From an uncultured Oscillospiraceae bacterium (GTDB lineage Bacteria > Bacillota > Clostridia > Christensenellales > Aristaeellaceae): a stretch of DNA of 59,395 nt. A program made the translations under genes and the position numbers. A model generated the notes under the pieces. It was not told the DNA's origin. It did no database searches and saw only the letters and a list, made by a program, of their open reading frames with translations. The DNA lies in NCBI GenBank assembly GCA_964439755.1, contig CAYTPJ010000001.1, positions 1-59,395 on the forward strand. Reading direction: 5' to 3'. Shown in pieces: positions 4,533-42,884 of this stretch; positions within the stretch are counted from its first letter, which is position 1, and each line of letters opens with the position of its first letter.

Positions 4533-4533
4533 T

Positions 4534-6300: not shown

Positions 6301-6407
6301 AGCATTCTCCCGTCCTTTGATGTATAATAGTATTGTACACGTTTTTTATGAAAAAAGCAAGTATAAACAATGTACAATTTTTTTATAGATGAAAGGGTTT
6401 AAAAGGC

Positions 6408-8117: not shown

Positions 8118-9254
8118 TTATTTAAGAAAGTATGTCATCATATAGCCCACTTGGTTTTGGTAGCGCACTTGCGTCCATTCATCTCCTGGGGTGAGCACAG
8201 TGACTGTTTTGTTAGAGGGCACACGCACAAGCACAGAGCTGTTCTGTTGGCTGGGCTTTGTACGCAAGTTGACGTAAGAATTGTTGTTTTTGACCGTCTT
8301 ATAGGCAATTCCTGGGAGACCGTAGAACTTTAAATACTTGGTCATCATATAGCCCACTCTGCCACTTGCAGAGCCGTAGAGTTTGCACCATGTTTCCCCT
8401 TGTGCAATCACTTCAAAGCGTGTACCATTTTTGTATTGCGCAAGGATTTTGGAAGAAGTGGTGGGCTGTTCACGCAAGTTTAAATAGTTGCCATGGTTGG
8501 GATTGTTCACAATAACATAGCCTTTGGTGGTGGGCTTGTGCGTGCCTGAAGAACTAGAAGAAGATCCAGACTCTGAAAGGTAACTCTTTGCCATGTACCC
8601 TTCTTTGCCATCTACCGACACTTTGTAGTAGCTGTTGCCCTTTAAAAGCACGCTCACCACACGGCCACCGTAATATTTGCCCAACACGTCATACGAGGTG
8701 GAAGGGCCGCTTCGTAAGTTCAAGGAGGTGCTGCCAGGCGTTACAATGGTGGCAGTGCTCACATTGCCTGCTGAGCCACTCACCCGCACAAATTCACGGC
8801 GAAAATACCCTGTCATGCCGTCAATCTGCACTTCATACCAGCCGTTGTACTCAGAGAGAATGACGCACTGTGCGCCATTGTAGTAAATGCCAAGCACTTT
8901 GGCGCTGTAACTGGGCATTTCACGTAGGTTTAAAAAAGAGGTGGATTTGGGGTTGTTCACAGTGCCCATGTTAGAGCCTGTGCTTTGAGAAGCAGTGGTG
9001 AGGTAATTTCTGTCCATATACCCTGTTTTGCCTGTTTTAATCACAGTGACAGCGTAAAAACCGTATGCTTCTCCTTCTATTTGCACCCAATCGCCTTTGG
9101 AGGCAGAGCCGATTTTGTTATAATCATACCCAGGGCCTTCACGCAAGTTTAATGAACTTGTGTTGTCTACAACGGCAAATTCAGCCAATGCACTGACTGC
9201 ACACAGGGCACAGAGTAAAGTGAGCAAAAACAGTAGCTTTTTAGTCTTGGTCAT
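8118..9254 (-). CDS. secreted protein made of five bacterial SH3 (SH3b) repeats
   Basis: Signal peptide (MTKTKKLLFLLTLLCALCAVSALA) followed by five repeats of about 70 aa. Each begins xxLNLR(E/S/T)xP and ends GYMxxxYL. No catalytic domain is visible. Confidence 0.8.
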   Translation of the reverse strand: MTKTKKLLFLLTLLCALCAVSALAEFAVVDNTSSLNLREGPGYDYNKIGSASKGDWVQIEGEAYGFYAVTVIKTGKTGYMDRNYLTTASQSTGSNMGTVNNPKSTSFLNLREMPSYSAKVLGIYYNGAQCVILSEYNGWYEVQIDGMTGYFRREFVRVSGSAGNVSTATIVTPGSTSLNLRSGPSTSYDVLGKYYGGRVVSVLLKGNSYYKVSVDGKEGYMAKSYLSESGSSSSSSGTHKPTTKGYVIVNNPNHGNYLNLREQPTTSSKILAQYKNGTRFEVIAQGETWCKLYGSASGRVGYMMTKYLKFYGLPGIAYKTVKNNNSYVNLRTKPSQQNSSVLVRVPSNKTVTVLTPGDEWTQVRYQNQVGYMMTYFLK

Positions 9255-9354: not shown

Positions 9355-10476
9355 TTAGTCCATCAGCTCTACAAGCACGGCATTTTGCATGTCCATGCCC
9401 TTTTGGGTCAGTGTTAAGTACCCATTTTGGAGCGTGACCAACTGCTCTTTTAAAGGCTTTTTGAGTCTTTCTAAATACACACTTTCTAAAGATACGTGGT
9501 GCATTTGTTCAAACTGCGCTAAGCTGACACCTTGTGTGAGGCGAAGCCCAAGCATGATGCTTTCAAACATGGCATCTTTTTGGCTGATATACGTGAGCGT
9601 AGGCTGTGTATTTTCCAAATACTGTTTTATTGTGCAAGCGTTTTGGTAACGCACGTTTTGGGTAAACCCACAGGCAGACAGCCCAATGCCGATATACTCT
9701 TTTCTCTGCCAACAGTCCACATTGTGCTGACACATGTACCCTTTTTTGCTAAAATTGCTGATTTCGTATTGCAAGTATCCTGCATTTTGGAGCATTTCTC
9801 GTGCTGTGTAGTACATGGCACGCTCCTCCTGTTCATCGGGCAAACAAAGCACCCCTTTTTCAATGTCTTGGTGCATCCTTGTGTTTTCTTCCACGATCAG
9901 CCCGTAGCAGGAAATGTGGGTGGGGTCAAGGTCAACAAAAGCTTTTACAGTGTCTTTTACGTCTTGCAGTGTTTGCGTTGGGATGCCGAGCATCATGTCC
10001 ACATTAAAGTTATGAAAGCCATGCGCCTTGATTTTATGGACGGTGTGCACAGCATCATCAAAGGTATGAATGCGAGAGAGTACGTGCAATATGTTTTCTT
10101 TGGAGGATTGTATGCCCATGCTCAAACGGTTGATTTTGTTATGTTTTAAAACGTCCAAAAATTCGTCCGTTACGCTGGAAGGGTTCATTTCGCAAGAAAG
10201 CTCTGCATTTTCCTTCAATGTAAAACAGCTGTGCACTGTGCTCAATAAACTGTCCATCCATTTTGGAGGCACAATGGAAGGGGTGCCACCTCCTATGTAC
10301 AGGGTGGAAAGGACACTGTCTTTATATGTGTCTGCTGCTCTTTTTATGTCCTCTTGCATTTTTAAAAGCACAGGGTGTATCTTGTCCTCCTGATGCGAAA
10401 AAGAAGCGAAATCGCAGTAAGCACATTTTCTTTCGCAAAAAGGAATGTGCAGGTAAAGCCCTTGTTCGTGCGTCAC
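9355..10476 (-). CDS. hemW: radical SAM family heme chaperone HemW (coproporphyrinogen III oxidase-like)
   Basis: The sequence GLYLHIPFCERKCAYCDF contains the CxxxCxxC radical-SAM motif at the canonical position. The 373-aa length and HemN_C-like tail fit HemW. It has a 4-nt overlap with the upstream gene. Confidence 0.85.
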   Translation of the reverse strand: MTHEQGLYLHIPFCERKCAYCDFASFSHQEDKIHPVLLKMQEDIKRAADTYKDSVLSTLYIGGGTPSIVPPKWMDSLLSTVHSCFTLKENAELSCEMNPSSVTDEFLDVLKHNKINRLSMGIQSSKENILHVLSRIHTFDDAVHTVHKIKAHGFHNFNVDMMLGIPTQTLQDVKDTVKAFVDLDPTHISCYGLIVEENTRMHQDIEKGVLCLPDEQEERAMYYTAREMLQNAGYLQYEISNFSKKGYMCQHNVDCWQRKEYIGIGLSACGFTQNVRYQNACTIKQYLENTQPTLTYISQKDAMFESIMLGLRLTQGVSLAQFEQMHHVSLESVYLERLKKPLKEQLVTLQNGYLTLTQKGMDMQNAVLVELMD

Positions 10477-11597
10477 GGTACTGTCACCGCATATACGTCA
10501 TTTTCACAAGCAAGCAGAGCAACTCCGTTGGACAAAAGCCCAATATAAGAGGTTACAGGGCCCATGTTGGCAGGGAGCGAGGCAACGGAAAAGCGTTGGC
10601 CAGAAATGTCTGCTCTATAAATACCATCATCTGAAAAAGCGTAAATTTTGTTGCCCATAAAGGAAGCGCCCACGCACGCATCAGGCAAAGTAAAGCGCTT
10701 GTCTGTTTTACCATAGAGGTAGCGCAACTGTGTTATTTGGTATAAGTCGTTCGTTTGTCTTGTAGGCGCAAAGAGCAACTCTGCTTGATTGTTTTTTTCA
10801 GCATGGTCAATGAGTTGCCAGCCGTAAACGAGCTGGGTGCTGTCAATATCTTGTTTGCCACGATAGTCATAGGTGCGCATTTGACGTGTGCTGATGGCGT
10901 GCAAATTGGTGTCTGCATACACGATTTTATACGTAATGGTGTCGCCAAGGTCCACGTCTCCAATCGTCATAACGCCCACTTGATAGGTGTTGAGTGTGGT
11001 GGAAGGCACAGTGCCATACAAGTTCATAGACGTTGTCCACAAGTATTCGCCGTCTGCAAAAAAGCCCAAATCAAGTATCAACTTGTCCTCATAGGCGGCA
11101 TTTTCTTCATCTCTTTTGTTGCCATAAAGGTCTAATATCACAAGGCGTGAAGCTTGATTGATGGAATTATCATCCCCCAATACCACGCCTACATATTTGC
11201 TTGAAATACGAGCAAACTGAATGCTTTCACCCATATTATCATCATACGTAGAGTGCCCATTTCTATCCAAAATGGAAAGCTGAGAGCCTGACCATATGGC
11301 AACAGCGCTGTCACAAGCATCAAAAGAGGCATCTTCCCCCACAGCATACGACCATTTTTCGGAGCCGTTTGAGTTTAAACACACGAGCGAAGTGCCATCG
11401 TAAAAGAGCACAGTGTTCCCAAAAGGCATAATCTCTTGCGTGGCAACACAACGCAATTTATCTGCTCTGATGTTTTTGCCTCCCCCGATAAATAGGCGAA
11501 GCATAAATATAACTGCTACAATAATAAGCACAAACACAGCAATTGTAATTGCTTTATTTGCCTTGCTTTTCTTTTCGTCCTCCTGGTAAAACTGCAT
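10473..11597 (-). CDS. membrane-anchored beta-rich protein (DUF5711-like), function unknown
   Basis: N-terminal charged segment plus one TM (AITIAVFVLIIVAVIFMLRLFIG), then about 330 aa of beta-rich sequence. The family assignment is from memory only. Confidence 0.55.
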   Translation of the reverse strand: MQFYQEDEKKSKANKAITIAVFVLIIVAVIFMLRLFIGGGKNIRADKLRCVATQEIMPFGNTVLFYDGTSLVCLNSNGSEKWSYAVGEDASFDACDSAVAIWSGSQLSILDRNGHSTYDDNMGESIQFARISSKYVGVVLGDDNSINQASRLVILDLYGNKRDEENAAYEDKLILDLGFFADGEYLWTTSMNLYGTVPSTTLNTYQVGVMTIGDVDLGDTITYKIVYADTNLHAISTRQMRTYDYRGKQDIDSTQLVYGWQLIDHAEKNNQAELLFAPTRQTNDLYQITQLRYLYGKTDKRFTLPDACVGASFMGNKIYAFSDDGIYRADISGQRFSVASLPANMGPVTSYIGLLSNGVALLACENDVYAVTVP

Positions 11598-13820: not shown

Positions 13821-16800
13821 ATGCGTACAGTGAGGGAAAAAATTGTTTATAAAAAGCTTGAATTGCCCAAGCACTATATTTTTTTATTAAAGAATGCGAT
13901 TAAAATGCTGACAAGAGCGCAAAAAGATATGAGCGCACATATGAGTGAACAGGTGTACAGCGAAGGGGCAAAGTGGTTGATTGAAAATCAGAAAATATTG
14001 TTAAAGAGGGCAGAAGAAACAAAGAGTCAGCTAAAAGGAGTTAAAAAACTGCCCGTGTGTGCGCAAAACAAGCAAAAAGTGCGTGTGCTTTTGTGTGCAG
14101 AAAATATATTGAAAGGTCAAACGGTGGTAAAAAAAGAGGATATTGTGTACTATATAGAGCACAATGAAATTGCCCTTGGGTATGATGAAATACAAGCTTT
14201 TTATTTATCAATGAGTGTTGTGCTTTTAAAAAAGGTGCTGTGCGCCGCACTTCTTTTAAAAGAGGAGGCAAGGAATTATACATGCGCCCAAAAAGCACTC
14301 AAAAAAGCACCAAAGGGAGCGCTTAAAGCACTTAAAAATAATAAAAAAGCCTATCAAATGCTTCAAAATATATTGCTCTTAAAAGGGGATGAAAAAACGC
14401 TGCAATTGGTTCAAATGAAGGGCAATAAAATGGTGTTTAAAGAAGACAAACAAAGTGAGCCTCCACCATTGTTTTTGTTGCGCCATGCTGTGCTCTGCTT
14501 GCGTGCGCTCAAAAAAATGCCTTTTGAACAAGTGAAAGAACAGATAAGCCCTGTGTATACTGCTTTTAAAAAGGATGAAACGTATTGCAAAATGGACAGG
14601 CAAAGCAGGCACTTGTATCTTTTTAAAGTGCACCAAATGACAAAGAAATTTAAGGTGCCAGAAAAGGAAATTGTACAGAGTATTTTAGCGCTTACAAAAG
14701 GGCAAACAGGGGCGCAAAAAGAAGTGGGCACATACTTATTTGAAAATCAAAAAAAGGTGCTGGAGCACCTTGGTAAAAAAAACATATTCTTTTCTTTAAA
14801 AACAAGGGAAACGCTCTTTGTTTGTGCACACTGCATACTTTTTATTGCTTTGTTTTTAGGTGTTTTTTGGATAAATAAAGAAGTGCTCTTAGCGCTTTTA
14901 TTGTCCCTTTTACTCTATGATTTTATTTCCCTTTTAGCGTGTAAAACTGTGCTCAAATATCATAAAAATGGCTTGCTTCCCAAACTGCTCATCAGGCAAT
15001 TAGACGAACAATTGCGCACGCTCGTCGTTGTGCCCACATTGATTACAAACAGGCAACATGCGCTTTTTATGGTGCGCCACTTGAGGGAATTGCGTGCACT
15101 CACCCCTGAACAAAATGTGGAGTTTATGCTCCTTTGTGATTTAAAAGATGCACATACGAGGGTAGACCAAGAAGATCAAGGGATTGTAGATATGCTCAAA
15201 GAAAGCGTATTTTTGCTCAATCAAAATGATGAAAACGTGTTTCATTTGATGGTGCGAGAAAGGCAAATGTCTAAAACGCAAAACAAGTATATTGGGCGAG
15301 AGAGAAAAAGAGGCTCTCTCCAATCTTTGCTCAACATCATCGCAGATGAAACAGTAGAAGATTTTTATGTACATCAATCTGTACCACATAATTTTTTAAA
15401 AAATCGGTATCGCTACGTCGTCACCTTGGATCAAGACACCTTGCTTTTAAAGGGGGATTTAAGGCGCATGGTGGGGGCAATGGAGCACCCTTTGCAAAAA
15501 GACAAAGTGGGGGTGATGCAACCTAAGATGCTTTCTCATCCCATGTCAGTTCAAACAAATGTGCAAAGAAAACTGTTTACAGAGTGCTCTGTGCCCTCTT
15601 ATTTGGGCGCCATTAAAGATGTATATCAAGATGTGTTTTCCAAAGGCTCTTTTGTAGGCAAGGGCATTATAAACCCGGTCGTGTTTTGCCAGAGAATAAA
15701 AGGAAAAATAAAAAATGAAAAGGTGCTCAGTCATGATTTGATTGAAGGGGAAATCGTCTGTTCCAAAGTATTGGAAGATGTGTTTATGCTCGATCAAAAC
15801 CCAAAAAAGGTGAGTGGATTTTACAAAAGGTACAACAGGTGGGTGAGAGGGGATGTACAGCTTTTGCCTTTTTTGGGCAAAAGATATTTGTCCCTTTTAT
15901 CCAAGTTTAAAATTTTAGACAATATGAAAAATGCGCTTGTGCCTCTTGCAAAAACAGGGGTGATTTTGTATGGTGCATATAATAATATGCCGTGGTTGTT
16001 TGTGTTTGCTCTGTCTTTTCCTTTAAAAAAAGCGTTTATCCATCTGATTTTTTTGCCTTACAAAGCGTATGCAGCTTTGGACGGTATAGTGCGTGCTTTG
16101 TTTCGTATGCTCTTTAGCAAAAAAAATCTATTGTCATGGGTTACGGCAGATCAAACGGATGTGCAAATAAACAATATGGTTGCACCCTATTTTTTTACAG
16201 TATTTGTAGGGGGTGTCACGCTGTATTTATCCCTTGTGCACGCTTTGCCCATTTACTTTGCTATCGGATTTTTACACGTGCTCTTTCCACTTTTTGTGCC
16301 TTATTTTGATCAAAATGAGAAAGAAAAGGATGCGCTTAAAGAACCACAGAGGCAAACTTTGCTTTTGCTTGCACAAAAAACGTTTGCATTTTTTGATGAA
16401 CATGTGACAGAAAAAACAAATGATTTGCCTCCTGATAACCTTCAAGTATCGCCGGATAAAGGGCGTCAAATGCGTACTTCTCCGACCAACATGGGGTTTT
16501 ATTTACTCAGCTTATATTGCGCAAAAGAGTTGGGCTTTATATCGCAAGATACGCTGTTTGAACGTGTAAAAAAGAGTGTGCACACACTCAAAAAATTGCC
16601 CAAATACAAAGGGCATTTTTATAATTGGTATGATATTGAACATTTGGAAGTGCTTGCGCCCCCTTTCGTGTCCTCCGTGGATGAAGGCAATTTGATGGCT
16701 TGTTTGCTCACCCTTTTACAAGCTTTAAGGGGAGAAAAAACGCTTGTACCCTCTTATCAAGAGGTGCTCTACGACATTCAAAAGTTGGTGATGGACATGG

Positions 16801-19800
16801 ACTTGTCCATGCTTCAAAACAAAAAAGAAGGGCTTTTTGCCATTGGGTTGCACACGGAAAGTGGTATGCTTACAGAAGGCTGTTATGATTTATTTGCATC
16901 AGAAGCGTTGATACTCACGTATGTTGCAGTGATGTTAAACATCGTGCCCGTGTCAAACTTTAAGCATTTACAAAGGGAAATTACCAAAACAAAAGGAGGC
17001 AACACATTGCTTTCTTGGTCGGGCACAGCGTTTGAATACCTGCTCCCCATGATATTTTTCCCTACTAAAAAGGGCACTTTGCTCTATGACAGCAACAAGA
17101 GCTTTATTAAAGCACAGATAAAAAAGAATGTGCTCATGCCTTTTGGCATCAGCGAAAGTGGGTATTATGCGTTTGATTGTGATTTAAACTATCAATACAA
17201 AGCGTTTGGGCTGTATGAAGCGGCTTTGTCTAAGGAAACGGAAGGCAATGTGATTGCCCCTTATGCGAGCATATTGTTTTTGAAATACGTGCGTAAAAAG
17301 GTACTTAAAAACATTGAGATATTGAAAAATTGGGGCGCAGAAGGAGCGTTTGGCCTGTATGAGGCGCTGGATTTTGAAAAAGCGAGGAGCACTTCTCCAC
17401 CTGCTGTTGTAAAAAGCTATATGGCGCACCATCAGGGCATGATTTTGTGCGCCATCACCAATGCGCTGTGCAACAACAAAATAGAGCGTACATTTTCTCA
17501 ACTGCCCATGGCGAGTGCACACCATTATTTGCTCATGGAAAAGGGCATTCGGCATGAAAAAGCGAGCAAAATCACACAATACGATGTTCAAAAAGGAGTG
17601 CATCAAGCAGATGAAGGGTATCATGTGCTGACGCAAAATGCTGCCCAAGTGCTCCACGCAAAGCATACTTCTTGCCTCATGGACTCTAAGGGCACAGGGT
17701 ATATTAGGTATAAGGATTTGTATTTGACACGCTATGTATCCCCCCACACTTCAGGCGTATTGTATTACGTGAAAAATCACAATAATAACAAAACAATGCC
17801 TCTGTTTCAAGAGCCTCATGCAACGATCTATCAACACGCCGTTGTATACACTTCGCATTTTGAAGGGTTATACATAAGGGAAACACGCTTTTTAAGCGCC
17901 ATGGAAGGCGCATTTGTGTCCTCCTTTGAGGTGCAAAATAAGAGCGAACAAGACGTTGCATTTTCCTTAACGAGCTATTTAGAGCCTGCAATGAGCACGC
18001 TCAAAGAGGACGAAGCGCATCCAAACTTTAGAGATTTATTCATTGTGACGGAAAAGGTGGGCAAGCGTGCGCTGATTGCAAGGCGCAAAAAGAGAAGCGA
18101 ACAAGAGCAAGAGGGCATGTTGGTACACTTTTTTGTGGGCAGTGTGAAAATGCTTGATTTTTGTGTAAACAAAGCGCAGTTTATAGGTAGAAACAGAGAT
18201 GTGTATGCCCCTAAATTGCTTTTTCAAAATGCAGAAGAAAAGGAAAAAGAAGTGCCCTCCGTGTTCCCTTGCTTATCCATTCAAGCACATCTTGAAGTGC
18301 AGAAAAAGAGCGCAGTCACCTTTTCTTTTGTCACTTCTTATGTGCACACAAAAGAGCAGGCAGATGCGATGCTTAGAACATTTTCTCAAAAAGAGGATGT
18401 GAAAAACGCCCTCGAACTGTCAAAAACACATGGCATGTTGTTGCTCAAAATGTTTGATTATCCAATCATGCGAAGTGTATTTTTGTATCACTTTTTGTAT
18501 CGCATTTTGTTTGACCAAACAAAGCGTGCATACAAGTACAAAAAGGAGGATGTTTGGCAGTTTGCCATCAGTTTAGACCACCCGATTTTGCTCCTTTGTT
18601 TAAAGGAAAATAGCCCGAGAGAGGAAATAAAAAACATACTCAAAGACATTGCTTTTTTAAGCTACAAAGGGATCACAATAGACCTTGTGTTTTTAAAGAA
18701 AAAAGGGGCAGAATACAGCGACATGTTGCATACTTTTTTGAGGGCTGAAATCAGTGTGTCAAAAATCAAGCACAACCATGTGTTCATAATAGAAGATACA
18801 AAGGAAAATGAAAATATACTCTCTTGTTTTTGTACGCTTAAAATTGTGCTCCATCAGAAAATGACATTGCAAGATGTGACCATGCAAGCACAAACCGTCA
18901 TACCACCTACTTTGATGCCTTCTATGTGTCATGAAATTGCGGTGGATAAAAAGCTCAATAAATATGGCAGTTTAAAGGGAGAGAGAGCGTTTGTGGTGCA
19001 CAATATTCCTCCTTTGCCTTGGTGCTATTTTTTGGCAACAGAACATTTTAGTACGCTCGTGTGTGAAAGTGGCATTTTATTTTCTTGCTTAAGAAACAGC
19101 CGTATGGAAAAATTGACCAGACGGCACAAAGATGTGTTAAACCCTCAAAACGCAGAAGAAATATACGTGCTCAATGAGCAAAAAGAAATGCTTCCTCTGT
19201 GTTCTGGCACTGTGGTGTACGAACTGGGTACAGCCACTTACTTTGTAGAAACAAGCTGTTTTACAGCGCAAACCACGTGCTTTACAGATGCGGACATGCG
19301 CATGGGTGTTCGAGATGTGGTAATCAAAAACAAGGGGCAAGAAGGGCTCCATATAGAGCTTTGCTATCAAGTGCATTTTTCAATGGGCGAAAGTGGAAAG
19401 TGGACGCATTGCGAAGCGCAAAAACACGCAGTGCACGCTTTTCACCCTGATTTTAATGGGTTTACATGTGCATATATGGAGAATGCTGTGGTGCACAATG
19501 ATGTGCTGTATATGCCCTTGCACATCCCAAAAAACGAGAAAAAAAGGTGTACAATGTGCTTGCTTTATGCTGAAAATGAACAAGAAAAAACAGACATGCT
19601 GGAGGTACTGTATCAACAAGGGGTGCTCAAGCGAATGCGCAAAGTAAAAGAATATTGGGAGAATAGTCTGTCACGCCTTTCAGTGTCTTTGAACGATGCG
19701 CACATGGAAAGGTGCATCAACACGTTTTTCCCTTATCAAACGCTATCTTCTCGCATTTTTATGCGTTCTTCCTTGTATCAAGAAGGGGGCGCATACGGAT

Positions 19801-21122
19801 TTAGAGATCAATTGCAAGATATGCTTGCGTTGTTGTACACAGATCAAGATCGTGTAAAAGCACATATTTTGCGCTCTGCAAGCCATCAATTTATAGAAGG
19901 GGATGTGCAACATTGGTGGCATGAAGAAAGAAAGGGTGTGCGCACGAAGATATCAGATGATAAGCTTTTTTTGCCTTTTTTAACAGCGTGCTACATAGAG
20001 GCAACAGGGGATCAGAGCATTTTAAAGGAGCAAGTGCCTTATGTAAAAAGTGCGCCTTTGGGGGAACATGAGGAAGAAAGGTATGAAACCCCTCAGGTGA
20101 CCGAATATATGGAAAGCCTTCAAATGCATTGCAATCGTGCGATAGAGAGCGTTAAACTGGGAGAAAAAAGCTTGCCTTTGATGGGGAGTGGGGATTGGAA
20201 TGACGGCATGAACAAAATTGCAGGCAAAAGAGGAGAAAGCGTGTGGCTTTGCTTCTTTTATATATTTGTGTTGGATCAATATAAAAAATACAGTGGCAAA
20301 GAACAAGTGTATGACAAAATGCAAAAGCAGATGAAAAAGGATGCGAATGTTACATGGGATGAAAGCTGGTTTATACGTTGTTATGATCAAAATGCTTTTT
20401 CTGTGGGGGGTAAAAACAGTGCTGTGCCCCGAATAGACCTAATCAGTCAAGCATTTTCTGTGTTTGCACAGATGAAGGAGGACAGGACGACGCAAGCAAT
20501 AAAAAGTGCGTTGGAAAAGCTATTTGATAGAGAAAATGGTGTTGTCAAGCTTTTAGACCCTCCTTTTTCAGAGCAGGAAAAAGCAGGATATATTTCTTCT
20601 TACGTGCCTTATGTTCGAGAAAATGGAGGGCAATACACACATGCTGTTGCGTTTATGATTTTGGCATTGTGCCAAAAAGGAATGATAGAAGAAGCGTGGG
20701 ATATGTTGATCAAAATTTTGCCTTTAAATCACGCAGACAGTGATGAAAAAATAGATGTGTACAAGGTGGAGCCGTATGCGTTGAGCGCAGATGTATATGC
20801 AGGGGCGCTCATGGGGCAAGGGGGATGGACGTGGTACACAGGGAGTGCCTCGTGGATGCAATACGCATTTTATCAAGGGCTTATGGGGCTTAAAATAGAG
20901 GGCGACACACTGAAATTTTCTCCTAAATTAAAAAAGGACATGCACACGTGCACGGTGTACTATACCTATCAAGATACAAGGTATATTTTAACAGGGGATA
21001 AAAATGTGTTTGTGCCCAAACTGGATGGAAAAATCATTACAAACGGTGTGATTACATTGCAAAATGATGGGAAAACACACGTGTACCATGTGCCTGTGGT
21101 GTACCAAAATATAGAAATATAA
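13821..21122 (+). CDS. cyclic beta-1,2-glucan synthase-like giant protein (GT84-like transferase + alpha/alpha-barrel middle domain + GH94 phosphorylase-like C-terminus)
   Basis: 2433-aa single ORF with SD GGGAGGGG upstream.
- TM cluster at about aa 340-385 and 700-800.
- Transferase motifs VVTLDQDT, SHDLIEGE and YNRWVRGDVQ.
- Middle-domain motif RTSPTNMGFYLLS.
- C-terminal GH94-type motifs FRDQLQD, GDVQHWWH, SGDWNDGMN and GGQYTHA. Confidence 0.8.
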   Translation: MRTVREKIVYKKLELPKHYIFLLKNAIKMLTRAQKDMSAHMSEQVYSEGAKWLIENQKILLKRAEETKSQLKGVKKLPVCAQNKQKVRVLLCAENILKGQTVVKKEDIVYYIEHNEIALGYDEIQAFYLSMSVVLLKKVLCAALLLKEEARNYTCAQKALKKAPKGALKALKNNKKAYQMLQNILLLKGDEKTLQLVQMKGNKMVFKEDKQSEPPPLFLLRHAVLCLRALKKMPFEQVKEQISPVYTAFKKDETYCKMDRQSRHLYLFKVHQMTKKFKVPEKEIVQSILALTKGQTGAQKEVGTYLFENQKKVLEHLGKKNIFFSLKTRETLFVCAHCILFIALFLGVFWINKEVLLALLLSLLLYDFISLLACKTVLKYHKNGLLPKLLIRQLDEQLRTLVVVPTLITNRQHALFMVRHLRELRALTPEQNVEFMLLCDLKDAHTRVDQEDQGIVDMLKESVFLLNQNDENVFHLMVRERQMSKTQNKYIGRERKRGSLQSLLNIIADETVEDFYVHQSVPHNFLKNRYRYVVTLDQDTLLLKGDLRRMVGAMEHPLQKDKVGVMQPKMLSHPMSVQTNVQRKLFTECSVPSYLGAIKDVYQDVFSKGSFVGKGIINPVVFCQRIKGKIKNEKVLSHDLIEGEIVCSKVLEDVFMLDQNPKKVSGFYKRYNRWVRGDVQLLPFLGKRYLSLLSKFKILDNMKNALVPLAKTGVILYGAYNNMPWLFVFALSFPLKKAFIHLIFLPYKAYAALDGIVRALFRMLFSKKNLLSWVTADQTDVQINNMVAPYFFTVFVGGVTLYLSLVHALPIYFAIGFLHVLFPLFVPYFDQNEKEKDALKEPQRQTLLLLAQKTFAFFDEHVTEKTNDLPPDNLQVSPDKGRQMRTSPTNMGFYLLSLYCAKELGFISQDTLFERVKKSVHTLKKLPKYKGHFYNWYDIEHLEVLAPPFVSSVDEGNLMACLLTLLQALRGEKTLVPSYQEVLYDIQKLVMDMDLSMLQNKKEGLFAIGLHTESGMLTEGCYDLFASEALILTYVAVMLNIVPVSNFKHLQREITKTKGGNTLLSWSGTAFEYLLPMIFFPTKKGTLLYDSNKSFIKAQIKKNVLMPFGISESGYYAFDCDLNYQYKAFGLYEAALSKETEGNVIAPYASILFLKYVRKKVLKNIEILKNWGAEGAFGLYEALDFEKARSTSPPAVVKSYMAHHQGMILCAITNALCNNKIERTFSQLPMASAHHYLLMEKGIRHEKASKITQYDVQKGVHQADEGYHVLTQNAAQVLHAKHTSCLMDSKGTGYIRYKDLYLTRYVSPHTSGVLYYVKNHNNNKTMPLFQEPHATIYQHAVVYTSHFEGLYIRETRFLSAMEGAFVSSFEVQNKSEQDVAFSLTSYLEPAMSTLKEDEAHPNFRDLFIVTEKVGKRALIARRKKRSEQEQEGMLVHFFVGSVKMLDFCVNKAQFIGRNRDVYAPKLLFQNAEEKEKEVPSVFPCLSIQAHLEVQKKSAVTFSFVTSYVHTKEQADAMLRTFSQKEDVKNALELSKTHGMLLLKMFDYPIMRSVFLYHFLYRILFDQTKRAYKYKKEDVWQFAISLDHPILLLCLKENSPREEIKNILKDIAFLSYKGITIDLVFLKKKGAEYSDMLHTFLRAEISVSKIKHNHVFIIEDTKENENILSCFCTLKIVLHQKMTLQDVTMQAQTVIPPTLMPSMCHEIAVDKKLNKYGSLKGERAFVVHNIPPLPWCYFLATEHFSTLVCESGILFSCLRNSRMEKLTRRHKDVLNPQNAEEIYVLNEQKEMLPLCSGTVVYELGTATYFVETSCFTAQTTCFTDADMRMGVRDVVIKNKGQEGLHIELCYQVHFSMGESGKWTHCEAQKHAVHAFHPDFNGFTCAYMENAVVHNDVLYMPLHIPKNEKKRCTMCLLYAENEQEKTDMLEVLYQQGVLKRMRKVKEYWENSLSRLSVSLNDAHMERCINTFFPYQTLSSRIFMRSSLYQEGGAYGFRDQLQDMLALLYTDQDRVKAHILRSASHQFIEGDVQHWWHEERKGVRTKISDDKLFLPFLTACYIEATGDQSILKEQVPYVKSAPLGEHEEERYETPQVTEYMESLQMHCNRAIESVKLGEKSLPLMGSGDWNDGMNKIAGKRGESVWLCFFYIFVLDQYKKYSGKEQVYDKMQKQMKKDANVTWDESWFIRCYDQNAFSVGGKNSAVPRIDLISQAFSVFAQMKEDRTTQAIKSALEKLFDRENGVVKLLDPPFSEQEKAGYISSYVPYVRENGGQYTHAVAFMILALCQKGMIEEAWDMLIKILPLNHADSDEKIDVYKVEPYALSADVYAGALMGQGGWTWYTGSASWMQYAFYQGLMGLKIEGDTLKFSPKLKKDMHTCTVYYTYQDTRYILTGDKNVFVPKLDGKIITNGVITLQNDGKTHVYHVPVVYQNIEI

Positions 21123-21148: not shown

Positions 21149-21176
21149 ACCTTTTGATGCGCTTTGTCATATTGTA
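21149..21176 (+). promoter_or_regulatory. candidate sigma-K-type (late mother-cell) promoter upstream of the 97-aa module gene
   Basis: AC (21149-21150), a 17-nt spacer, then CATATTGTA (21168-21176) fits the B. subtilis sigma-K pattern AC-N16/17-CATAnnnTA. It lies about 57 nt before the ATG. The motif is short, so a chance match is possible. Confidence 0.3.
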
Positions 21177-21232: not shown

Positions 21233-21526
21233 ATGAGTATGCCAGTCATTACCCCAGGTACGGGCACAAGATGCCAAGCTATCACAGACATCATCACTTC
21301 TGTTGCGTTGGAACAGACTGCCCTTTCCCATATTTTGAATGCAGAAGGTGAAAAAATCCAAGCGATTGTTGCGAGGGCAACAACGGCAGAAGAAATGCTT
21401 GCTGTGAATAAATCGGTTGAAAGCATGGTCAAGTCCATTGCGCGCCTTGAAATGATGTTACACTCTAAATTAGAGTTGTTTGAAGAGTGCTTGTGCGATG
21501 AATGCCCCGTAGCTGTGGCAAACTAA
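21233..21526 (+). CDS. 97-aa protein consisting only of the shared C-terminal module (ALEQTALSHILNAEGEKIQ ... Cys-rich tail CLCDEC)
   Basis: The start is placed at the ATG at 21233, 9 nt after AGGAG; the track ORF begins further upstream at 21188. No signal peptide or TM segment. It is a paralogue of the C-termini of the next two genes. Confidence 0.75.
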   Translation: MSMPVITPGTGTRCQAITDIITSVALEQTALSHILNAEGEKIQAIVARATTAEEMLAVNKSVESMVKSIARLEMMLHSKLELFEECLCDECPVAVAN

Positions 21527-21534
21527 AGTGCTGA

Positions 21535-21571
21535 AATTGCCTCTTGTGCTTTATATACAAGGGGCAATTTT
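21535..21571 (+). terminator. rho-independent terminator after the 97-aa gene
   Basis: 13-14-bp stem AAATTGCCTCTTGT / ACAAGGGGCAATTT (one G-U pair) followed by TTTTGCATTT. A TATAAT box at 21582-21587 follows it. Confidence 0.7.
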
Positions 21572-21613
21572 GCATTTCTATTATAATAAGCCATTTGGAA
21601 AGGTTGTGATACC

Positions 21614-22936
21614 ATGGCTTTTGGTGATTTGATCACCACATTTCAGCTTCCAGAAAACATTCCCATGGGGTTGGGATATGGGTTGACCGTGTATAATGCG
21701 CAACTTGTAAACGGAAGCTTTACAAATAACAATAGCGATATTGGTTTTTTTGATATCAACAATAATTTGAATTATTTAAGCCATGTAGAAACAGAAGAAA
21801 CATATCAGAGTATACAATACGATGAAGATGAGCATGTTTTTTGGGGGTTGGCAAACATTATCCCCACCCCTTTTCCACAACCACACTTGCAGAAAATTTA
21901 TAAATTCAATGTAGATGGCACATCGATTTTTAATTTTGATGTGCACGACAGCATTCCGCCTGCTGACCGTTTTAATGAGAACGATTGGGAAAGTCAGCTG
22001 GCAAATGCCCTTTCAATGACGCCCGATAAGACGGAATTTTGGGTATCTTATTACCGTGCATTTCGTATTTATCGTTTTAGTGTCGCAGGGAATTATCTTG
22101 GATTTTTTGATATTCCTCCAGAAAATGAAACGATCACTGGCATGAGCACAGACGGTACCAACATGTGGTTTGTGACGTATGATTTTAATCCAGACCCACA
22201 AAGGGTATTGACCATCAGTAAAAGAGATACAATGGCAAATGTGCTTCAAACAATTACAGTGCCTGTGCCCGAATCCCCCCAAGGTGGAGGATATAATATC
22301 AACGATATTGAGTTTGATCAAGTCAATTTTTTGCCAAAGTGCGCTTTGTGGGTGCGTGCATCTACGGGCGATGTAGGCAACGCTCAGCAGTATGCGCATG
22401 TATATGATATTGGCGATTGTAGTGGTAGCTGTACAGAACCTCCTATAATTATCGCAGAAAATTTGTGTTTGAAAGTAGGCGCAAATTTTGATCCACTCTT
22501 CAACGTGCAGGCGGTCGACTGTGACGGTAGCGACATCCCTTTGACAGAAGCAAACGTAATCTTTAACGATGTAGACACGGCAACACCGGGTATGTATACG
22601 GTAACATACCAAGTACAGAGCGTGTCAAACGATTTAATAACAGTCAAAAGCATTTATGTAGGCGTGGTGGAAGAAACACCCCGTATGCAGGCGATGACGG
22701 ACTTGCTTGCATCCATTGCGCTTGAAGAAACAGCCCTGTCACACATTTTAAACGCAGAAGGTGAAAAAATACAAAAAGCACTCGCATTGGGGCTATCGAG
22801 TGCAGAGCTTATAAAAATCAACCAATCGGTGGAAGATATGACAGAGGAAATTACAAACTTGGAATGGGTGTTGGAGCAAAAAGCAATGCTTTGTTCTTGT
22901 GAAAATGGTCAACCAAAATGTGACTTTCCACAATAA
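21614..22936 (+). CDS. 440-aa protein: beta-rich blade-like repeats + Ig-like domain + shared C-terminal module and Cys tail
   Basis: No signal peptide (MAFGDLITTFQLPEN...).
- Recurrent xFW(V/G)...IY(K/R)F blade-like segments.
- An Ig-like segment ending PGMYTVTYQVQSVSNDLITVKSIYVGVV (DUF5011/Big-like pattern).
- Then TDLLASIALEETALSHILNAEGEKIQ ... LCSCENGQPKCDFPQ. Confidence 0.8.
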   Translation: MAFGDLITTFQLPENIPMGLGYGLTVYNAQLVNGSFTNNNSDIGFFDINNNLNYLSHVETEETYQSIQYDEDEHVFWGLANIIPTPFPQPHLQKIYKFNVDGTSIFNFDVHDSIPPADRFNENDWESQLANALSMTPDKTEFWVSYYRAFRIYRFSVAGNYLGFFDIPPENETITGMSTDGTNMWFVTYDFNPDPQRVLTISKRDTMANVLQTITVPVPESPQGGGYNINDIEFDQVNFLPKCALWVRASTGDVGNAQQYAHVYDIGDCSGSCTEPPIIIAENLCLKVGANFDPLFNVQAVDCDGSDIPLTEANVIFNDVDTATPGMYTVTYQVQSVSNDLITVKSIYVGVVEETPRMQAMTDLLASIALEETALSHILNAEGEKIQKALALGLSSAELIKINQSVEDMTEEITNLEWVLEQKAMLCSCENGQPKCDFPQ

Positions 22937-22947
22937 AATACAATGGA

Positions 22948-22984
22948 AGCGCTTCTGTGTTTTCTTTCACAGGAGCGCTGTTTT
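22948..22984 (+). terminator. rho-independent terminator after the 440-aa gene
   Basis: 12-bp stem AGCGCTTCTGTG / CACAGGAGCGCT (one G-U pair; 22948-22959 / 22968-22979) followed by GTTTTGTG. It lies inside the 5' extension of the track ORF 22943-24049. Confidence 0.7.
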
Positions 22985-23032
22985 GTGCATACAATGATAC
23001 AGGGAAAGTATAAAAAGACAGGAGGTTTTCCC

Positions 23033-24049
23033 GTGCTAAACGGTGTTTGTGTAAAAGAAATACCCTTTGTATTGGACTGTCAAAGTGCGTATGATTGTGT
23101 TGCTTTTGACGGTTACTATTATTATTTTTTATTTTGCCATCAGCAGTATGTTTTAAAAACGGATGTTTGTTTTCAATGTGTCCATTCTTATCCTTTGCAT
23201 AGAAAATACACGAGCTTGTGCTTTGACAAAGCTGAAAAATGCTTTTGGGCATCTTATACCAACAGCCCGTATACCCTGTATAAACTGAGCATAGATTTGT
23301 GCGAACTTGGTACATGGAGTGTTCCCAAAAGTGCAAACGGATGTGGCGTATTGTCTAGCCTTTCTTATGATGATGTAAACAATGCGCTGATGTTCGTGTT
23401 GGACAATCAGTTTGTTCAATATAAAATAAGCACCAACAACTCTTGTGTACAGTATGATGATGTAAATGCCTATATTTTTTCTGCATCTTGCGTGTTTCCT
23501 TTTTTTGCCTTAACGCTTGTTCAAAACAATTTGACAAAGTTTGTATTGTTAGACTGTGCAGGGCACGTGCAACACGCATGTGATATGCCTTGTGATTTTA
23601 TTGTTAAAAACGTCTATATGTCATGCGAACAAAATGTTCAAAACCAACTTTTGCTCGATGTGTTTATTGTGTATAAATGTGGGCAAAGATGTTGTAAAAA
23701 AGTGCTTGCTTTTCCACTTGATTGCGCTTGCACTTCTTGCCCACAGCCCTGCTCTCCTCCTTTGTGTTTCCCTGTTCAGCCGTGTGATGGAGGCATAGAA
23801 ATACTCCACTCTATTGCTTTACAGGAAACGGCACTTGCGCACATTTTAAACGCAGAAGGAGAAAAAATACAAAAGGCAGTGGCGTGTGCTTGCTCTGTGG
23901 AGGAATTGTTGTGCGTCAACAAAAGTGTGCAAGATACCATACACAAAGTTACAGCTTTAGAACAAACCTTGGCTTTAAAGCTGACCAGTGTGTTAGATAT
24001 GCCCTCTTGTTGCCCGACAGATTGTTGCGCACAGGGAAAAATGTTGTAA
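23033..24049 (+). CDS. ~338-aa very Cys-rich protein: beta-rich region + Cys/Pro linker + shared C-terminal module and CC..CC tail
   Basis: The start is reassigned to the in-frame GTG at 23033, 7 nt after a perfect AGGAGG (23020-23025) and downstream of the terminator hairpin. I count about 32 Cys in about 338 aa. The linker reads CACTSCPQPCSPPLCFPVQPC. The module reads HSIALQETALAHILNAEGEKIQ and the tail MPSCCPTDCCAQGKML. No signal peptide. Confidence 0.75.
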   Translation: MLNGVCVKEIPFVLDCQSAYDCVAFDGYYYYFLFCHQQYVLKTDVCFQCVHSYPLHRKYTSLCFDKAEKCFWASYTNSPYTLYKLSIDLCELGTWSVPKSANGCGVLSSLSYDDVNNALMFVLDNQFVQYKISTNNSCVQYDDVNAYIFSASCVFPFFALTLVQNNLTKFVLLDCAGHVQHACDMPCDFIVKNVYMSCEQNVQNQLLLDVFIVYKCGQRCCKKVLAFPLDCACTSCPQPCSPPLCFPVQPCDGGIEILHSIALQETALAHILNAEGEKIQKAVACACSVEELLCVNKSVQDTIHKVTALEQTLALKLTSVLDMPSCCPTDCCAQGKML

Positions 24050-24143: not shown

Positions 24144-24629
24144 TTACTGTTTGGATATGTTTTCTTTTTCTAAATTTTCTTTCTCCATTTTTCCTTTTTC
24201 ATCTTTTTTGGTTTTATCACCATGGTTGTGCAGTTGCGCCAAAATCGTTTTAAGCTTATCTGGGATGGGCAAGCCCAACCTGCTGATATTTTCTATGAGG
24301 GATAAACCTTCGTTGGTTAGGTAAAAGAAAATAATGGCAGACCGTAGTGCATTGCCATTTTGCACCACGTGCACGTCTATGATGTGCCCAATGCCTACGA
24401 GAGAAAATATCAATATTTTTTTAAATATGCCTTTAAATCCCACTTCGCTGGACATGCTTTTTTCCACAATTGCACACATCATGCCCGAAATATAATCTAA
24501 AACACAAAATACAATTAAAGCAATCAACATGCCGTCCATTTCTCCTAAAAATACGCCGAGCCACCCCCCAAGGAGGGTACATGACATTTGAATTTTTGTC
24601 CAAATCATGTCTATGGTGTTATTATCCAT
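24144..24629 (-). CDS. phage-type holin, holin_4_1 / TcdE toxin-secretion-lysis holin family
   Basis: 161 aa with TM helices. The family pattern is present: VLDYISGMMCAIVEKSMSSEVGFKGIFKKILIF...RSAIIFFYLTNEGLSLIENISRLGLPIPDKLK, with a charged Lys/Glu C-tail. The ATG lies inside the last codons of the hydrolase gene (8-nt overlap), and GGAGG is 9 nt upstream. Confidence 0.85.
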   Translation of the reverse strand: MDNNTIDMIWTKIQMSCTLLGGWLGVFLGEMDGMLIALIVFCVLDYISGMMCAIVEKSMSSEVGFKGIFKKILIFSLVGIGHIIDVHVVQNGNALRSAIIFFYLTNEGLSLIENISRLGLPIPDKLKTILAQLHNHGDKTKKDEKGKMEKENLEKENISKQ

Positions 24630-25524
24630 TGATTGTAGCCTCCAGTTTCTTTAATTTTGAAAGCAATAAAGATAATTCAGAACGGATGCTTTCTATTTCC
24701 TTTTTAAAAGCTTGGTATTGCAAAGTATCGCTTTCTTCTATGCCTTCTTCTTCCTCCTTTTTTTCCTCCTTTTGGGTAACAAAAAAGAGCAACTTTTCCC
24801 ACGTTTTGTCGCCTACAATACCATCTATTTTCAAATTGTTCTTTTGCTGAAACAAGAGCACGCTTGCTCGGGTTTTCTTTCCAAAAATCCCGTCCACCAC
24901 CAAGCTTTCTCCAAGCAAGTTCAAATGTCTTTGAAGTACTTTGACATTTTCTCCTCTTGAACTAAAGCGCAGTGTTTCTAACCCCTGTTTTTCTGTTATA
25001 TCGCTGTATAGCCCTGTTGGAATCATATGGTGTGTCCACGCAGAAGGCACAAACTTTTCTCTCACCACGCCATAAGCGTGTGCTTTTGCATGCACCACTG
25101 TGTTGTCGCCCAAATACAAACCTACATGTGTCATAATGCCCTTTCTTTCTCTAAACACAAGGCACATTTTGTCTGTCTGCATGCTTTGAATGGTGCCTCT
25201 TGTGTCGTACGCTGTTTTTCTCCATTGGCTGGTTGCACCCGACACGAGGCGAATGCCCCCTTCTTTTAAGGCGTAGCGTGTGAGCTGTGCGCAATCATAC
25301 GCCGTTTTCCCCACATTGTTTTCTCTATCAAAATATTTGCAGTTTTGGCAGCTGCTTGCCCTGCCTGATAATATATCGCAATGGTGGAACATCTTGCTTT
25401 TATAGTCGGGGTATTGCTGTGCACGTGCCTTTCGATAGGCAGTCGTACATATTTGCCCTGTGCCACCATATATATAAGGATGCCCCACTTTGGAAAGCGC
25501 CCATTGCTTGATCTTTTCAATCAT
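24622..25524 (-). CDS. NlpC/P60 (C40) peptidoglycan endopeptidase with PG_binding_1 domain and coiled-coil tail (endolysin-like, no signal peptide)
   Basis: Catalytic Cys context YDCAQLTRYAL and His context THVGLYLGDNTVVHA. PG-binding repeat GENVKVLQRHLNLLG...DGIFGKKT...DGIVGDKTWEKL. I place the start at the ATG at 25522-25524 (MIEKIKQW), 9 nt after GAGGAG, rather than the track start at 25566. Confidence 0.85.
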   Translation of the reverse strand: MIEKIKQWALSKVGHPYIYGGTGQICTTAYRKARAQQYPDYKSKMFHHCDILSGRASSCQNCKYFDRENNVGKTAYDCAQLTRYALKEGGIRLVSGATSQWRKTAYDTRGTIQSMQTDKMCLVFRERKGIMTHVGLYLGDNTVVHAKAHAYGVVREKFVPSAWTHHMIPTGLYSDITEKQGLETLRFSSRGENVKVLQRHLNLLGESLVVDGIFGKKTRASVLLFQQKNNLKIDGIVGDKTWEKLLFFVTQKEEKKEEEEGIEESDTLQYQAFKKEIESIRSELSLLLSKLKKLEATING

Positions 25525-25860
25525 ATATTTTTTCTCCTCATCTAAATGTGGGCAAAATGCACCCACAGATAATGCCTGCTTTAAAAACAGACTGCTTTTA
25601 GGATATCTATCCTATTTACATCATACGTAGTTTTTATAGGAGTGTTCTTTTATATGAAAAGACAAATATAAATAAAATATACGAATTGAAAGGTTCATTG
25701 TCCCAAAATGAAAAATACAAGCACATTTTAAAAAATGAAAATTATGGCAGATGAACGAAACATTTTTTATCTTTGCGTATTTTAGGGAAAAACGCTTTAC
25801 AATTTTAAAAAATATGATATACTTGAGGAGGCAAAAAAACACACGAAAGGATGACAGAAT

Positions 25861-41930: not shown

Positions 41931-42884
41931 ATGACAACGTATGTGCAGGATAATTATGACTTGTTTGAATGCCAAAAGGATGATTGTAAACACAATTGCT
42001 GTATTGGTTGGGAAATAGATGTGGACGAAAAAACGCTCCAAAAATACAGCGCTCTAAAGGGAAACTTTAAAGAAAGATTGGATCAGAACATTTCTTTAGA
42101 GGGCACACCACATTTTCAGTTGCAAAAAGGAGATAGATGCCCTTTTTTAAACGAACAAGGTTTGTGCGACATCATCACAGAGCTTGGAGAAGATTATTTG
42201 TGTGAAATATGTGATTTGCACCCTCGTTTTGTGCACACATACAGTTCGAGAAAAGAAATAGGGTTGGGGCTTTGCTGCGAAGAAGTGGCGCATCTTTTGC
42301 TTGCAAAAGAAACACCCTTTTCCCTTGTGAAAATCAAAGAAGATGCACAACACAAAAAAATCAAGGACAAAGAAAAACTATTCTTTGCCCTTAGAAAACA
42401 TATTTTTTCAATTGTACAAGATAGGAGTATGCCTTTTGCTCATCGTGTAGAAAAATTACAAGCATACTGCAATCGCCCTGAAATGCTCTCTGTGTTTGAT
42501 TATGCAGTTTTTTATCAAACGCTTGAAATGTTAGACCCTGCTTGGAAAACAATGCTCCAAAATTTAGAAAAGTGTGAACAGGATGCGCATTGTACATCAA
42601 GCTTTACCTTTCATGGAGAAAGCTATGATATTGTGCTTGAACAATTGCTTTGCGCTTTTTTATTCAGGCACTTAACCAATTGCATGGAGGGTATGTATTT
42701 AACACCTGCTGTTTTGTTTTCCATTTTAAGCGTTCAAATGATCGATGCATTGATACGTTGCCATGTATTAGAACATAAAAATATAACGATTGAAGATACA
42801 GCACAAATCATTCGTGCGTATTCATCAGAGATTGAGTATTCCACTCAAAATGTGGATGAAATTATGCAAAAACTCTGTGAATAA
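41931..42884 (+). CDS. Cys-rich FliB/YkgJ-like protein (flagellin lysine-N-methylase family-like)
   Basis: N-terminal FECQKDDCKHNCCIGWEIDVD...RCPFLNEQGLCDI...CEICDLHPRF matches the CxxCxxCC zinc/iron-chelating pattern of this family. No flagellar genes are nearby. Confidence 0.5.
   Translation: MTTYVQDNYDLFECQKDDCKHNCCIGWEIDVDEKTLQKYSALKGNFKERLDQNISLEGTPHFQLQKGDRCPFLNEQGLCDIITELGEDYLCEICDLHPRFVHTYSSRKEIGLGLCCEEVAHLLLAKETPFSLVKIKEDAQHKKIKDKEKLFFALRKHIFSIVQDRSMPFAHRVEKLQAYCNRPEMLSVFDYAVFYQTLEMLDPAWKTMLQNLEKCEQDAHCTSSFTFHGESYDIVLEQLLCAFLFRHLTNCMEGMYLTPAVLFSILSVQMIDALIRCHVLEHKNITIEDTAQIIRAYSSEIEYSTQNVDEIMQKLCE

Follow-up and report, generated by a model that had tools for sequence, protein, structure and literature searches.

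What could a spore-forming bacterium make of a protein in which 32 of 338 residues are cysteines? This question is raised by the last of three paralogous genes, here called A, B and C, that lie side by side in a 59,395-nt stretch of DNA from an uncultured Oscillospiraceae bacterium (GenBank assembly GCA_964439755.1, contig CAYTPJ010000001.1, positions 1 to 59,395 of the forward strand; hereafter the window). An earlier note had proposed a spore-surface or appendage role for gene C. Our analysis indicates that gene C is real and that its product is most likely a minor subunit of “sporesilk” fibres, the endospore appendages built from the protein A-ENA. The appendage part of the earlier proposal is strengthened by the A_ENA hairpin found in A, B and C, by the enrichment of a sporulation promoter motif upstream of related genes and by the presence of SpoIIP in the window, but a lattice of the CotY/ExsY/CdeC type is not borne out.

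Gene C and its A_ENA hairpin

Gene C lies in frame +2. Its longest open reading frame (ORF) spans 22943-24049 and encodes 368 aa with 34 Cys. The GTG at 23033, preceded by AGGAGG (23020-23025) with a 7-nt spacer, is the better start, since it is backed by this ribosome-binding site (RBS) and since the form starting at 22943 must include a terminator-like hairpin at 22948-22979. From this GTG the protein counts 338 aa and exactly 32 Cys (9.5%), in agreement with the earlier estimate of about 32, and the Cys/Pro string CGQRCCKKVLAFPLDCACTSCPQPCSPPLCFPVQPC and the SCCPTDCC tail that had been pointed out are both present. By comparison, cysteine averages 1.74% over the 40 window ORFs that exceed 200 aa, the second-richest reaching 5.4%. 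The Cys content of 40 full-length homologues of C ranges from 6 to 13%, so that the richness of gene C is not due to chance. Neither a signal peptide nor a sortase motif was found in the protein. As a side observation, the second-richest ORF (41931-42884, + strand, 317 aa) carries ...CQKDDCKHNCC... in its N-terminus and matches no Pfam family at E<=1e-3.

The protein can be divided into four parts:

23033-23722, + strand: Cys-rich, five-bladed propeller of 20 strands, aa 1-230 (AlphaFold2, Foldseek)
23723-23788, + strand: Cys/Pro linker, aa 231-252 (CACTSCPQPCSPPLCFPVQPC), at the position taken by the N-terminal latch in the major subunit
23789-23998, + strand: A_ENA hairpin, aa 253-322 (9ihh_A match, PF26595, AlphaFold2 helices)
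23999-24049, + strand: disordered Cys tail, aa 323-338, plus stop (MPSCCPTDCCAQGKML; AlphaFold2, sequence)

The module common to A, B and C is the A-ENA alpha-helical hairpin (Pfam PF26595, A_ENA; PDB 9ihh, “spore-silk A-ENA fibers”). Residues 257-321 of C match 9ihh_A (phmmer E = 1.1e-7), which is the only meaningful PDB sequence match of the protein, and the precomputed label PF26595 is carried by the window protein and by all 77 homologues. Scanned against Pfam-A and NCBIfam, A, B and C gave no family for the shared module, the Pfam copy used being one without PF26595, and a literature search on PF26595 found no paper. The reference for this module is A-ENA of Bacillus thuringiensis sv. israelensis (Bti; Q8KNV8, PDB 9ihh). 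Its subunits, alpha-helical hairpins, stack to give a cross-alpha fibre of two protofilaments, which is locked by five intermolecular isopeptide bond types; a SigK-type promoter drives their production in sporulation, and lysis of the mother cell releases them (Sleutel, Sogues & Remaut, Nat Commun 2026, PMC13111695). The same study proposed that “A-ENA fusion” proteins dock passenger domains onto the fibre. Protein C combines the family match with a two-helix hairpin of ~70 residues and a single-domain gene in its cluster, gene A, located 1.5 kb upstream. Since its hairpin is preceded by a propeller and a linker, with no free latch, C belongs to the “A-ENA fusion” class and not to the major-subunit class. 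As judged from its sequence, C is thus an A_ENA family member of the fusion class and not a relative of CotY, ExsY or CdeC, and what defines it is the isopeptide-forming hairpin, not its cysteine content.

The structure prediction is consistent with this architecture. The AlphaFold2 model, built with a 41-sequence alignment, has a mean predicted local distance difference test (pLDDT) score of 84.8, with values >90 across most of the propeller domain. Residues 1-230 are predicted to form 20 beta-strands in five four-stranded blades, and the hairpin two helices (253-285 and 289-322) with a pLDDT of about 90; the linker (243-251) and the tail (329-338) fall below 50. The top Foldseek PDB matches are all beta-propellers (YVTN 1l0q, PAL 3fvz, YjiK 3qqz and WD40 proteins), none of which points to a specific function. 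When the propeller domain alone was searched against 1.84 billion representatives, 140 clusters were retrieved, and the A_ENA hairpin was present on 89 of the 92 clusters of at least 300 aa; the propeller is therefore effectively dedicated to A_ENA fusions.

These observations bear on the idea that C is a free-standing, Cys-rich lattice protein of the CotY/ExsY/CdeC/CsxA kind, forming a disulfide-linked coat or exosporium layer independently of A-ENA fibres. A Cys content of 9.5% resembles that of those proteins, and the promoter context of C is of sporulation type. Nevertheless, we consider this idea very unlikely: C has a complete A_ENA hairpin, conserved isopeptide residues and a paired major-subunit gene, its propeller is almost never found without the hairpin, and it matches no Pfam-A or NCBIfam family at E<=1 apart from two chance-level hits. 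The earlier note had likewise seen no homology to CotY, ExsY, CdeC or CsxA. What C shares with CotY/ExsY, CdeC/CdeM and CsxA is a high Cys content and a presumed mother-cell expression, the disulfide cross-linking of an outer layer being drawn by analogy only; it differs from them by the absence of detectable homology and by its propeller and A_ENA hairpin.

The cysteines themselves are partly conserved. The earlier note had linked a spore-surface role to conserved Cys positions in orthologues, and such positions do exist: C63, C70, C220, C221, C231, C240 and C326 are conserved at >=80% in the C-family alignment, C231 and C240 of the linker being kept in 95% and 88% of homologues, and 9 of the 32 Cys fall in alignment columns with >=50% Cys. 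A role in metal binding (Zn or Fe-S) or redox chemistry, instead of structural disulfides, might be suggested by the CxCxxC and CCxxCC motifs of the tails, and a “4Fe-4S cluster domain” class is listed among the A-ENA passengers of the B. cereus group (PMC13111695). However, Pfam and NCBIfam gave no ferredoxin or zinc-finger match, and the cysteines are scattered over the propeller beta-strands with no regular spacing, which makes this role highly improbable.

Isopeptide-bond residues and gene pairing across the family

We compared 185 A_ENA domains at the isopeptide positions, numbered as for Bti A-ENA in PMC13111695. The residues of bond 2 (K42-N64, catalyst E39) correspond to K278, N296 and E275 in C and are near-invariant in every class; the acceptor Q44 and catalyst E41 of bond 1 correspond to Q280 and E277 and are conserved as well. 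These five residues of C are invariant or >=90% conserved, in the 41-sequence alignment and among the 185 domains. For bond 3, the donor K316 (K84) and the acceptor E265 (E29) are present, and the position of the catalyst E28 is occupied by Gln. Altogether, the hairpin residues E265, E275, E277, K278, Q280, N296, E310 and K316 of C are invariant or nearly so.

To place C among its relatives, the A_ENA genes of 88 fetched loci and of the window were sorted with purpose-built hidden Markov models:

Single-domain A_ENA: 84 genes, median Cys 3.0%
Propeller-A_ENA: 58 genes, median Cys 8.7%
Other C-terminal-hairpin fusions: 36 genes, median Cys 0.8%
N-terminal-hairpin fusions: 7 genes, median Cys 0.5%
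Background ORFs: 561, median Cys 1.56%

Each of the bond 1-3 residues K42, N64, E39, K84, E29, Q44 and E41 is found in at least 55 of the 58 propeller-class proteins. They are also found in at least 83 of the 84 single-domain proteins, with the exceptions of Q44 (73/84) and of position 29, where 83/84 have Glu or Gln. The covalent capture proposed below, in which isopeptide bonds 1-3 would fix C to the fibre, is thus well grounded in conservation. The E28 position behaves differently: it is Glu in 64/84 single-domain proteins, Val or Ile in 34/58 propeller-class proteins, and Gln in C (Q264, window 23825-23827). This change may mark a non-equivalent, perhaps terminal, position in the fibre. 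Indeed, having no latch and a changed E28, C is predicted to be covalently capturable by the major subunit without being its equivalent, which would fit a terminal or otherwise special place on the fibre.

A distribution scan with one genome per species yielded 582 A_ENA matches. About 48 species carry the Cys-rich propeller-A_ENA gene in full length, among them Lachnospiraceae, Oscillospiraceae, Clostridium, Longibaculum, Longicatena, Faecalicatena, Anaerovorax and Acetivibrio, with proteins all <=32% identical to C. Carriers available in culture include Longibaculum muris DSM 29487, Longicatena caecimuris DSM 29481, Faecalicatena faecalis and Clostridium thermobutyricum. For 38 of 52 Cys-rich propeller genes, a single-domain A_ENA gene lies within 1 kb, in divergent orientation in 24 cases and on the same strand in 14. 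A further fusion gene, typically of the CLIPPER, SpaA, VWA or CshA type, is present in 26 loci. Two single-domain matches come from genomes labelled outside the classical spore-formers, Mycoplasmatota bacterium zrk6 (locus L054) and a Paludibacteraceae metagenome-assembled genome (L084); they could reflect binning contamination or a truly wider distribution.

This distribution is relevant to another reading, in which C would be a distal adhesin: it would cap the fibre as a “ruffle”-like tip, its propeller would bind a ligand such as host mucin, a glycan or another spore, and its cysteines would form only intramolecular, stabilising disulfides. Propellers are frequent binding modules, the other A_ENA passengers (CshA, CLIPPER/DUF11, SdrD_B, SpaA, thioester domain, VWA, collagen/C1q) point in the same direction, and A-ENA fusions were proposed as tip fibrillae (PMC13111695). 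Moreover, C is fast-evolving when compared with gene A, as is frequent in surface-exposed ligand binders. We regard a tip adhesin as possible but unlikely, since 26 of the 52 loci also hold a separate, Cys-poor fusion of adhesin type, since the near-constant partnership of the Cys-rich propeller with the major subunit better fits a structural role, and since mostly non-conserved Cys positions argue against fixed structural disulfide pairs.

Cysteines are also found at the C-terminal ends of the other family members. Clostridial single-domain proteins often end in KLELFxDCLCxxC right after helix 2, hence with a CxCxxC motif. The tails of the propeller class are CC..C clusters with at least two Cys in 46 of 58 proteins, as in the SCCPTDCC of C. 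Cys tails are present in all A_ENA classes and the Bti A-ENA sequence has no Cys; on this sequence comparison, Cys-rich C-terminal tails are a clostridial addition. Bti fibres can be labelled through tags placed at the C-terminus of A-ENA (PMC13111695), so that the Cys tails should, by analogy, be exposed. Disulfides between tails might supplement or replace the absent bonds 4 and 5. The KLELFxDCLCxxC-type tail is common to window gene A and to loci L003, L009, L010, L012, L014, L020, L048 and L057.

Another locus of the survey, L002, has an a-ena cluster composed of two single-domain genes, a Cys-rich propeller gene and a SpaA/CLIPPER fusion; it is adjoined by four tandem SipL-domain genes (3538-6659). 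SipL is a clostridial coat morphogenetic protein family.

Genes A and B, promoters and neighbouring genes

The other elements around gene C are the following:

21149-21176, + strand: SigK-type motif AC-N17-CATATTGTA, 57 nt upstream of gene A, read directly from the sequence
21233-21526, + strand: gene A, 97 aa, single-domain A-ENA and putative major fibre subunit (9ihh_A match, AAAGGAG RBS)
21532-21572, + strand: terminator-like hairpin 3' of gene A, 17-bp stem followed by a T-run
21614-22936, + strand: gene B, 440 aa, 8 Cys, with a propeller (1-265), an immunoglobulin (Ig)-like domain (278-352), an A_ENA hairpin (356-425) and a CSC..C tail
22948-22998, + strand: terminator-like 12-bp hairpin 3' of gene B (22948-22979), overlapping a promoter-like element of gene C (22966-22998)
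24144-24629, - strand: TcdE/phage-type holin (Pfam, NCBIfam; PHROG holin 4e-28)
24622-25566, - strand: hydrolase with NlpC/P60 and PG_binding_1 domains (Pfam, NCBIfam; PHROG endolysin 8e-19)

Gene A matches 9ihh_A over residues 1-93 against 1-98, latch included (phmmer E = 6e-16), and its latch MSMPVITPG aligns with MGMPTIPEG of Bti. Its C-terminal tail contains CLCDEC and the protein ends in KLELFEECLCDECPV. It has 4 Cys when translated from the RBS-backed ATG at 21233 and 5 when translated from 21188. The hairpin of gene B was recognised by its match to 9ihh (E = 1.3e-6), and its Ig-like domain belongs to Pfam Big_3 / Bact_surface_Ig-like; the AlphaFold2 model has a pLDDT of 77.5. The N-terminus of B aligns with the C-family propeller in hhalign (probability 95.5%, E = 1.4e-8), and conserved Cys of the C family are substituted in it (ICYD....CFWA vs IQYDEDEHVFWG). 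Cys richness was therefore derived in one propeller lineage; of the propellers in B and C, only that of C is Cys-rich. The paralogues do have 8 and 4 Cys as the earlier note had counted. Its remark that these lie mostly in the tails applies to A (3/4) and only in part to B, where 3 of 8 are in the tail and the rest in or beside the Ig-like domain.

Gene A is 72-82% identical to the single-domain genes of many species' loci, gene B 41-56% identical to its orthologues, and gene C <=32% to any homologue. Based on these identities, the three paralogues differ strongly in evolutionary rate.

The sigma-K-like motif that had been noticed upstream of the locus was found at 21149-21176, and its form matches that of the SigK site of Bti a-ena (CACCTTTGGAATAGCTGTTACATATAATA), for which reporter activity was confined to sporulating cells (PMC13111695). 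Within the window alone this motif is not significant, with 4 matches vs 6.5 expected; it became evidence through the comparison across loci. Indeed, it occurs upstream of 40/84 single-domain genes vs 6/525 control ORFs (about 40-fold; Fisher 1e-32), mostly 48-99 nt 5' of the start codon, and upstream of 16/58 propeller genes (Fisher 6e-13 against the same controls). Shuffled upstream regions gave mean counts of 1.06 and 0.68 for the two classes, respectively. Upstream of gene C itself, we found TTCACA-N18-TACAAT as the promoter-like element and AC-N17-CATACAATG, one base off the SigK -10, both being consensus matches only.

As for the wider context, the earlier report of spoIIP in the window is correct, SpoIIP being encoded at 57113-58216 (E = 9.5e-54). 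The rest of the window is chromosomal, with SecA, PrfB, TsaD, RNR, DapA/B and Asd.

The holin and hydrolase genes form a lysis cassette (24144-25566, - strand) convergent with A-C, in which the hydrolase gene precedes the holin gene with an 8-nt overlap. Its position directly downstream raises the question of whether A-C could encode structural or fibre proteins of a phage and form a prophage remnant together with this holin-endolysin cassette. This reading was rejected and we give it practically no credence: a PHROG search of A, B and C returned no match, no other phage genes flank the cassette, whose neighbours are a GH94 protein, a GH20 protein and a two-component system, and a holin lies beside the a-ena cluster in only one of 88 other loci (L088, Phage_holin_4_1). 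By analogy with the amidase of the Bti cluster, the cassette may serve mother-cell lysis. As a conserved part of the system it was nevertheless rejected, since a holin is found in 1/88 loci and no SigK motif was found upstream of the hydrolase gene; the cassette is thus not counted as a part of the system.

Upstream of gene A, a 2433-aa protein (13821-21122, + strand) with GH94 catalytic, GH94 supersandwich and glucoamylase domains, similar to cyclic beta-1,2-glucan synthase, ends 26 nt 5' of the SigK-like motif of the cluster. Further upstream are a protein with five SH3_3 repeats and a DUF5711 protein (8118-9254 and 10473-11597, both - strand). Two sizeable ORFs at 1792-3030 (- strand) and 6408-7976 (+ strand) match no Pfam family at E<=1e-3.

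Proposed role of C and comparison with known spore fibres

We propose that A, B and C probably constitute an a-ena (“sporesilk”) endospore-appendage cluster of a spore-forming gut Firmicute, with C as a captured minor subunit that acts as a disulfide anchor or cross-linker. The product of gene A would be the major subunit, whose hairpins would stack into cross-alpha fibres polymerised covalently through intermolecular isopeptide bonds. Protein C would be made in the mother-cell cytoplasm as a minor subunit and co-polymerise with it, its C-terminal A_ENA hairpin docking in or on the fibre just like that of a major subunit. There, Q280 of C would be the acceptor for the N-terminal amine in the latch of a major subunit (bond 1), K278 would be joined to the Asn of a neighbour (bond 2) and K316 to a neighbour's Glu or Gln (bond 3). 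Once docked, C would display its five-bladed, cysteine-packed propeller on the fibre. Upon mother-cell lysis and under oxidising conditions, the many thiols of propeller, linker and tail would pair into disulfides, which would make the module harder and link the fibres with one another or with the Cys-rich outer spore layer. We infer such cross-linking or anchoring by the cysteines of C, as well as the timing of its expression and its position on the fibre, from the features described above.

Several observations weigh against this proposal. First, 23 of the 32 Cys positions of C correspond to alignment columns of less than 50% Cys, so that their number is kept and their position is not. Second, the E28 position, Gln in C and Val or Ile in most propeller-class proteins, means that full integration into the fibre is not assured, and C, having no free N-terminal latch, cannot donate isopeptide bond 1. 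Third, bonds 4 (K77-E78) and 5 (K76-Q82) are not conserved: almost every clostridial domain has Leu in place of K77, and the K76 and Q82 positions are variable across domains and both Ala in C. The fibre geometry may therefore differ from that of Bti. These two bonds appear specific to the Bti-type fibre and for this reason were not taken as defining PF26595. Fourth, the loci with the closest relatives of A and B (L087 and L088) have no C gene in their cluster. Finally, no RNA run with the window sequence was found, and the only runs that carry window DNA are three gut-metagenome DNA runs.

Compared with the Bti system, the locus has in common the ~70-aa hairpin with its signature SIALEE.ALAHILNAEGEKIQ...VNKSV...LE..L..KL, the conserved residues of bonds 1-3, a multi-gene cluster with a single-domain subunit, the form of the SigK-type promoter, a peptidoglycan hydrolase gene beside the cluster (the Bti a-ena cluster also holds a cell-wall amidase; PMC13111695) and the absence of a signal peptide. 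In contrast to Bti A-ENA, C is a 338-aa fusion with its passenger N-terminal to the hairpin and no free latch, it lacks the bond 4/5 residues (K77, K76/Q82) and has Gln for E28, and its 9.5% Cys and Cys-rich tail have no counterpart in the Cys-free Bti protein. The genome is also of gut-anaerobe type, and the window encodes neither Cry nor Cyt toxins.

In the B. cereus group and Pasteuria, A-ENA fusions include, according to PMC13111695, the “A-BclA” ruffles (A-ENA, collagen and C1q) and the SdrD_B/OmcB and 4Fe-4S classes. In these fusions A_ENA is likewise a docking or anchoring module for a passenger and the genes lie beside single-domain subunit genes, but the hairpin is N-terminal and the passenger C-terminal, which is the reverse of the order in C. 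The words “propeller”, “cysteine” and “disulfide” do not occur in the main text of that paper. As far as we could find, the Cys-rich five-bladed propeller N-terminal to the hairpin, the Cys tails, the near-obligate pairing with a major subunit and the wide spread in gut Clostridia are apparently undescribed.

The S-ENA and L-ENA appendages (DUF3992) of the B. cereus group are spore fibres whose subunits are covalently locked by disulfides. Minor subunits for the tip and for anchoring also belong to them, the Cys-rich, CotZ-like ExsL being one of the anchors. The system proposed here would resemble them as spore fibres with covalently locked subunits, the locks in S-ENA and L-ENA being disulfides. 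Unlike their beta-jellyroll, C consists of an alpha hairpin and a propeller; it has no sequence similarity to them and no DUF3992 match in Pfam.

It is conceivable, though speculative and rather doubtful, that gut-clostridial A-ENA fibres use two chemistries, isopeptide bonds 1-3 along the stack and disulfides from the conserved CxCxxC or CC..C tails, with the Cys-rich propeller subunit as a redox-triggered anchor or cross-linker that would lock fibres to each other and to the Cys-rich outer layer of the spore only on exposure to oxygen outside the gut. If so, the spore matrix would harden on leaving the host.

To our knowledge, the A-ENA fibres characterised so far come from B. thuringiensis alone, in which they serve to glue spores to toxin crystals. 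The present locus and its counterparts in about 50 related species reveal a conserved set of components, namely a major subunit, a Cys-rich propeller subunit and often a large adhesin-type fusion. The set spans gut Lachnospiraceae, Oscillospiraceae, Clostridium and Erysipelotrichales-like genomes, and its genes are preceded by promoter motifs of the late mother-cell (SigK) type. If our proposal is correct, it would provide a molecular handle on the spore appendages of commensal gut bacteria, and hence on how their spores clump, adhere and are transmitted. A natural fibre locked by isopeptide bonds and disulfides alike would also be of relevance to protein materials.

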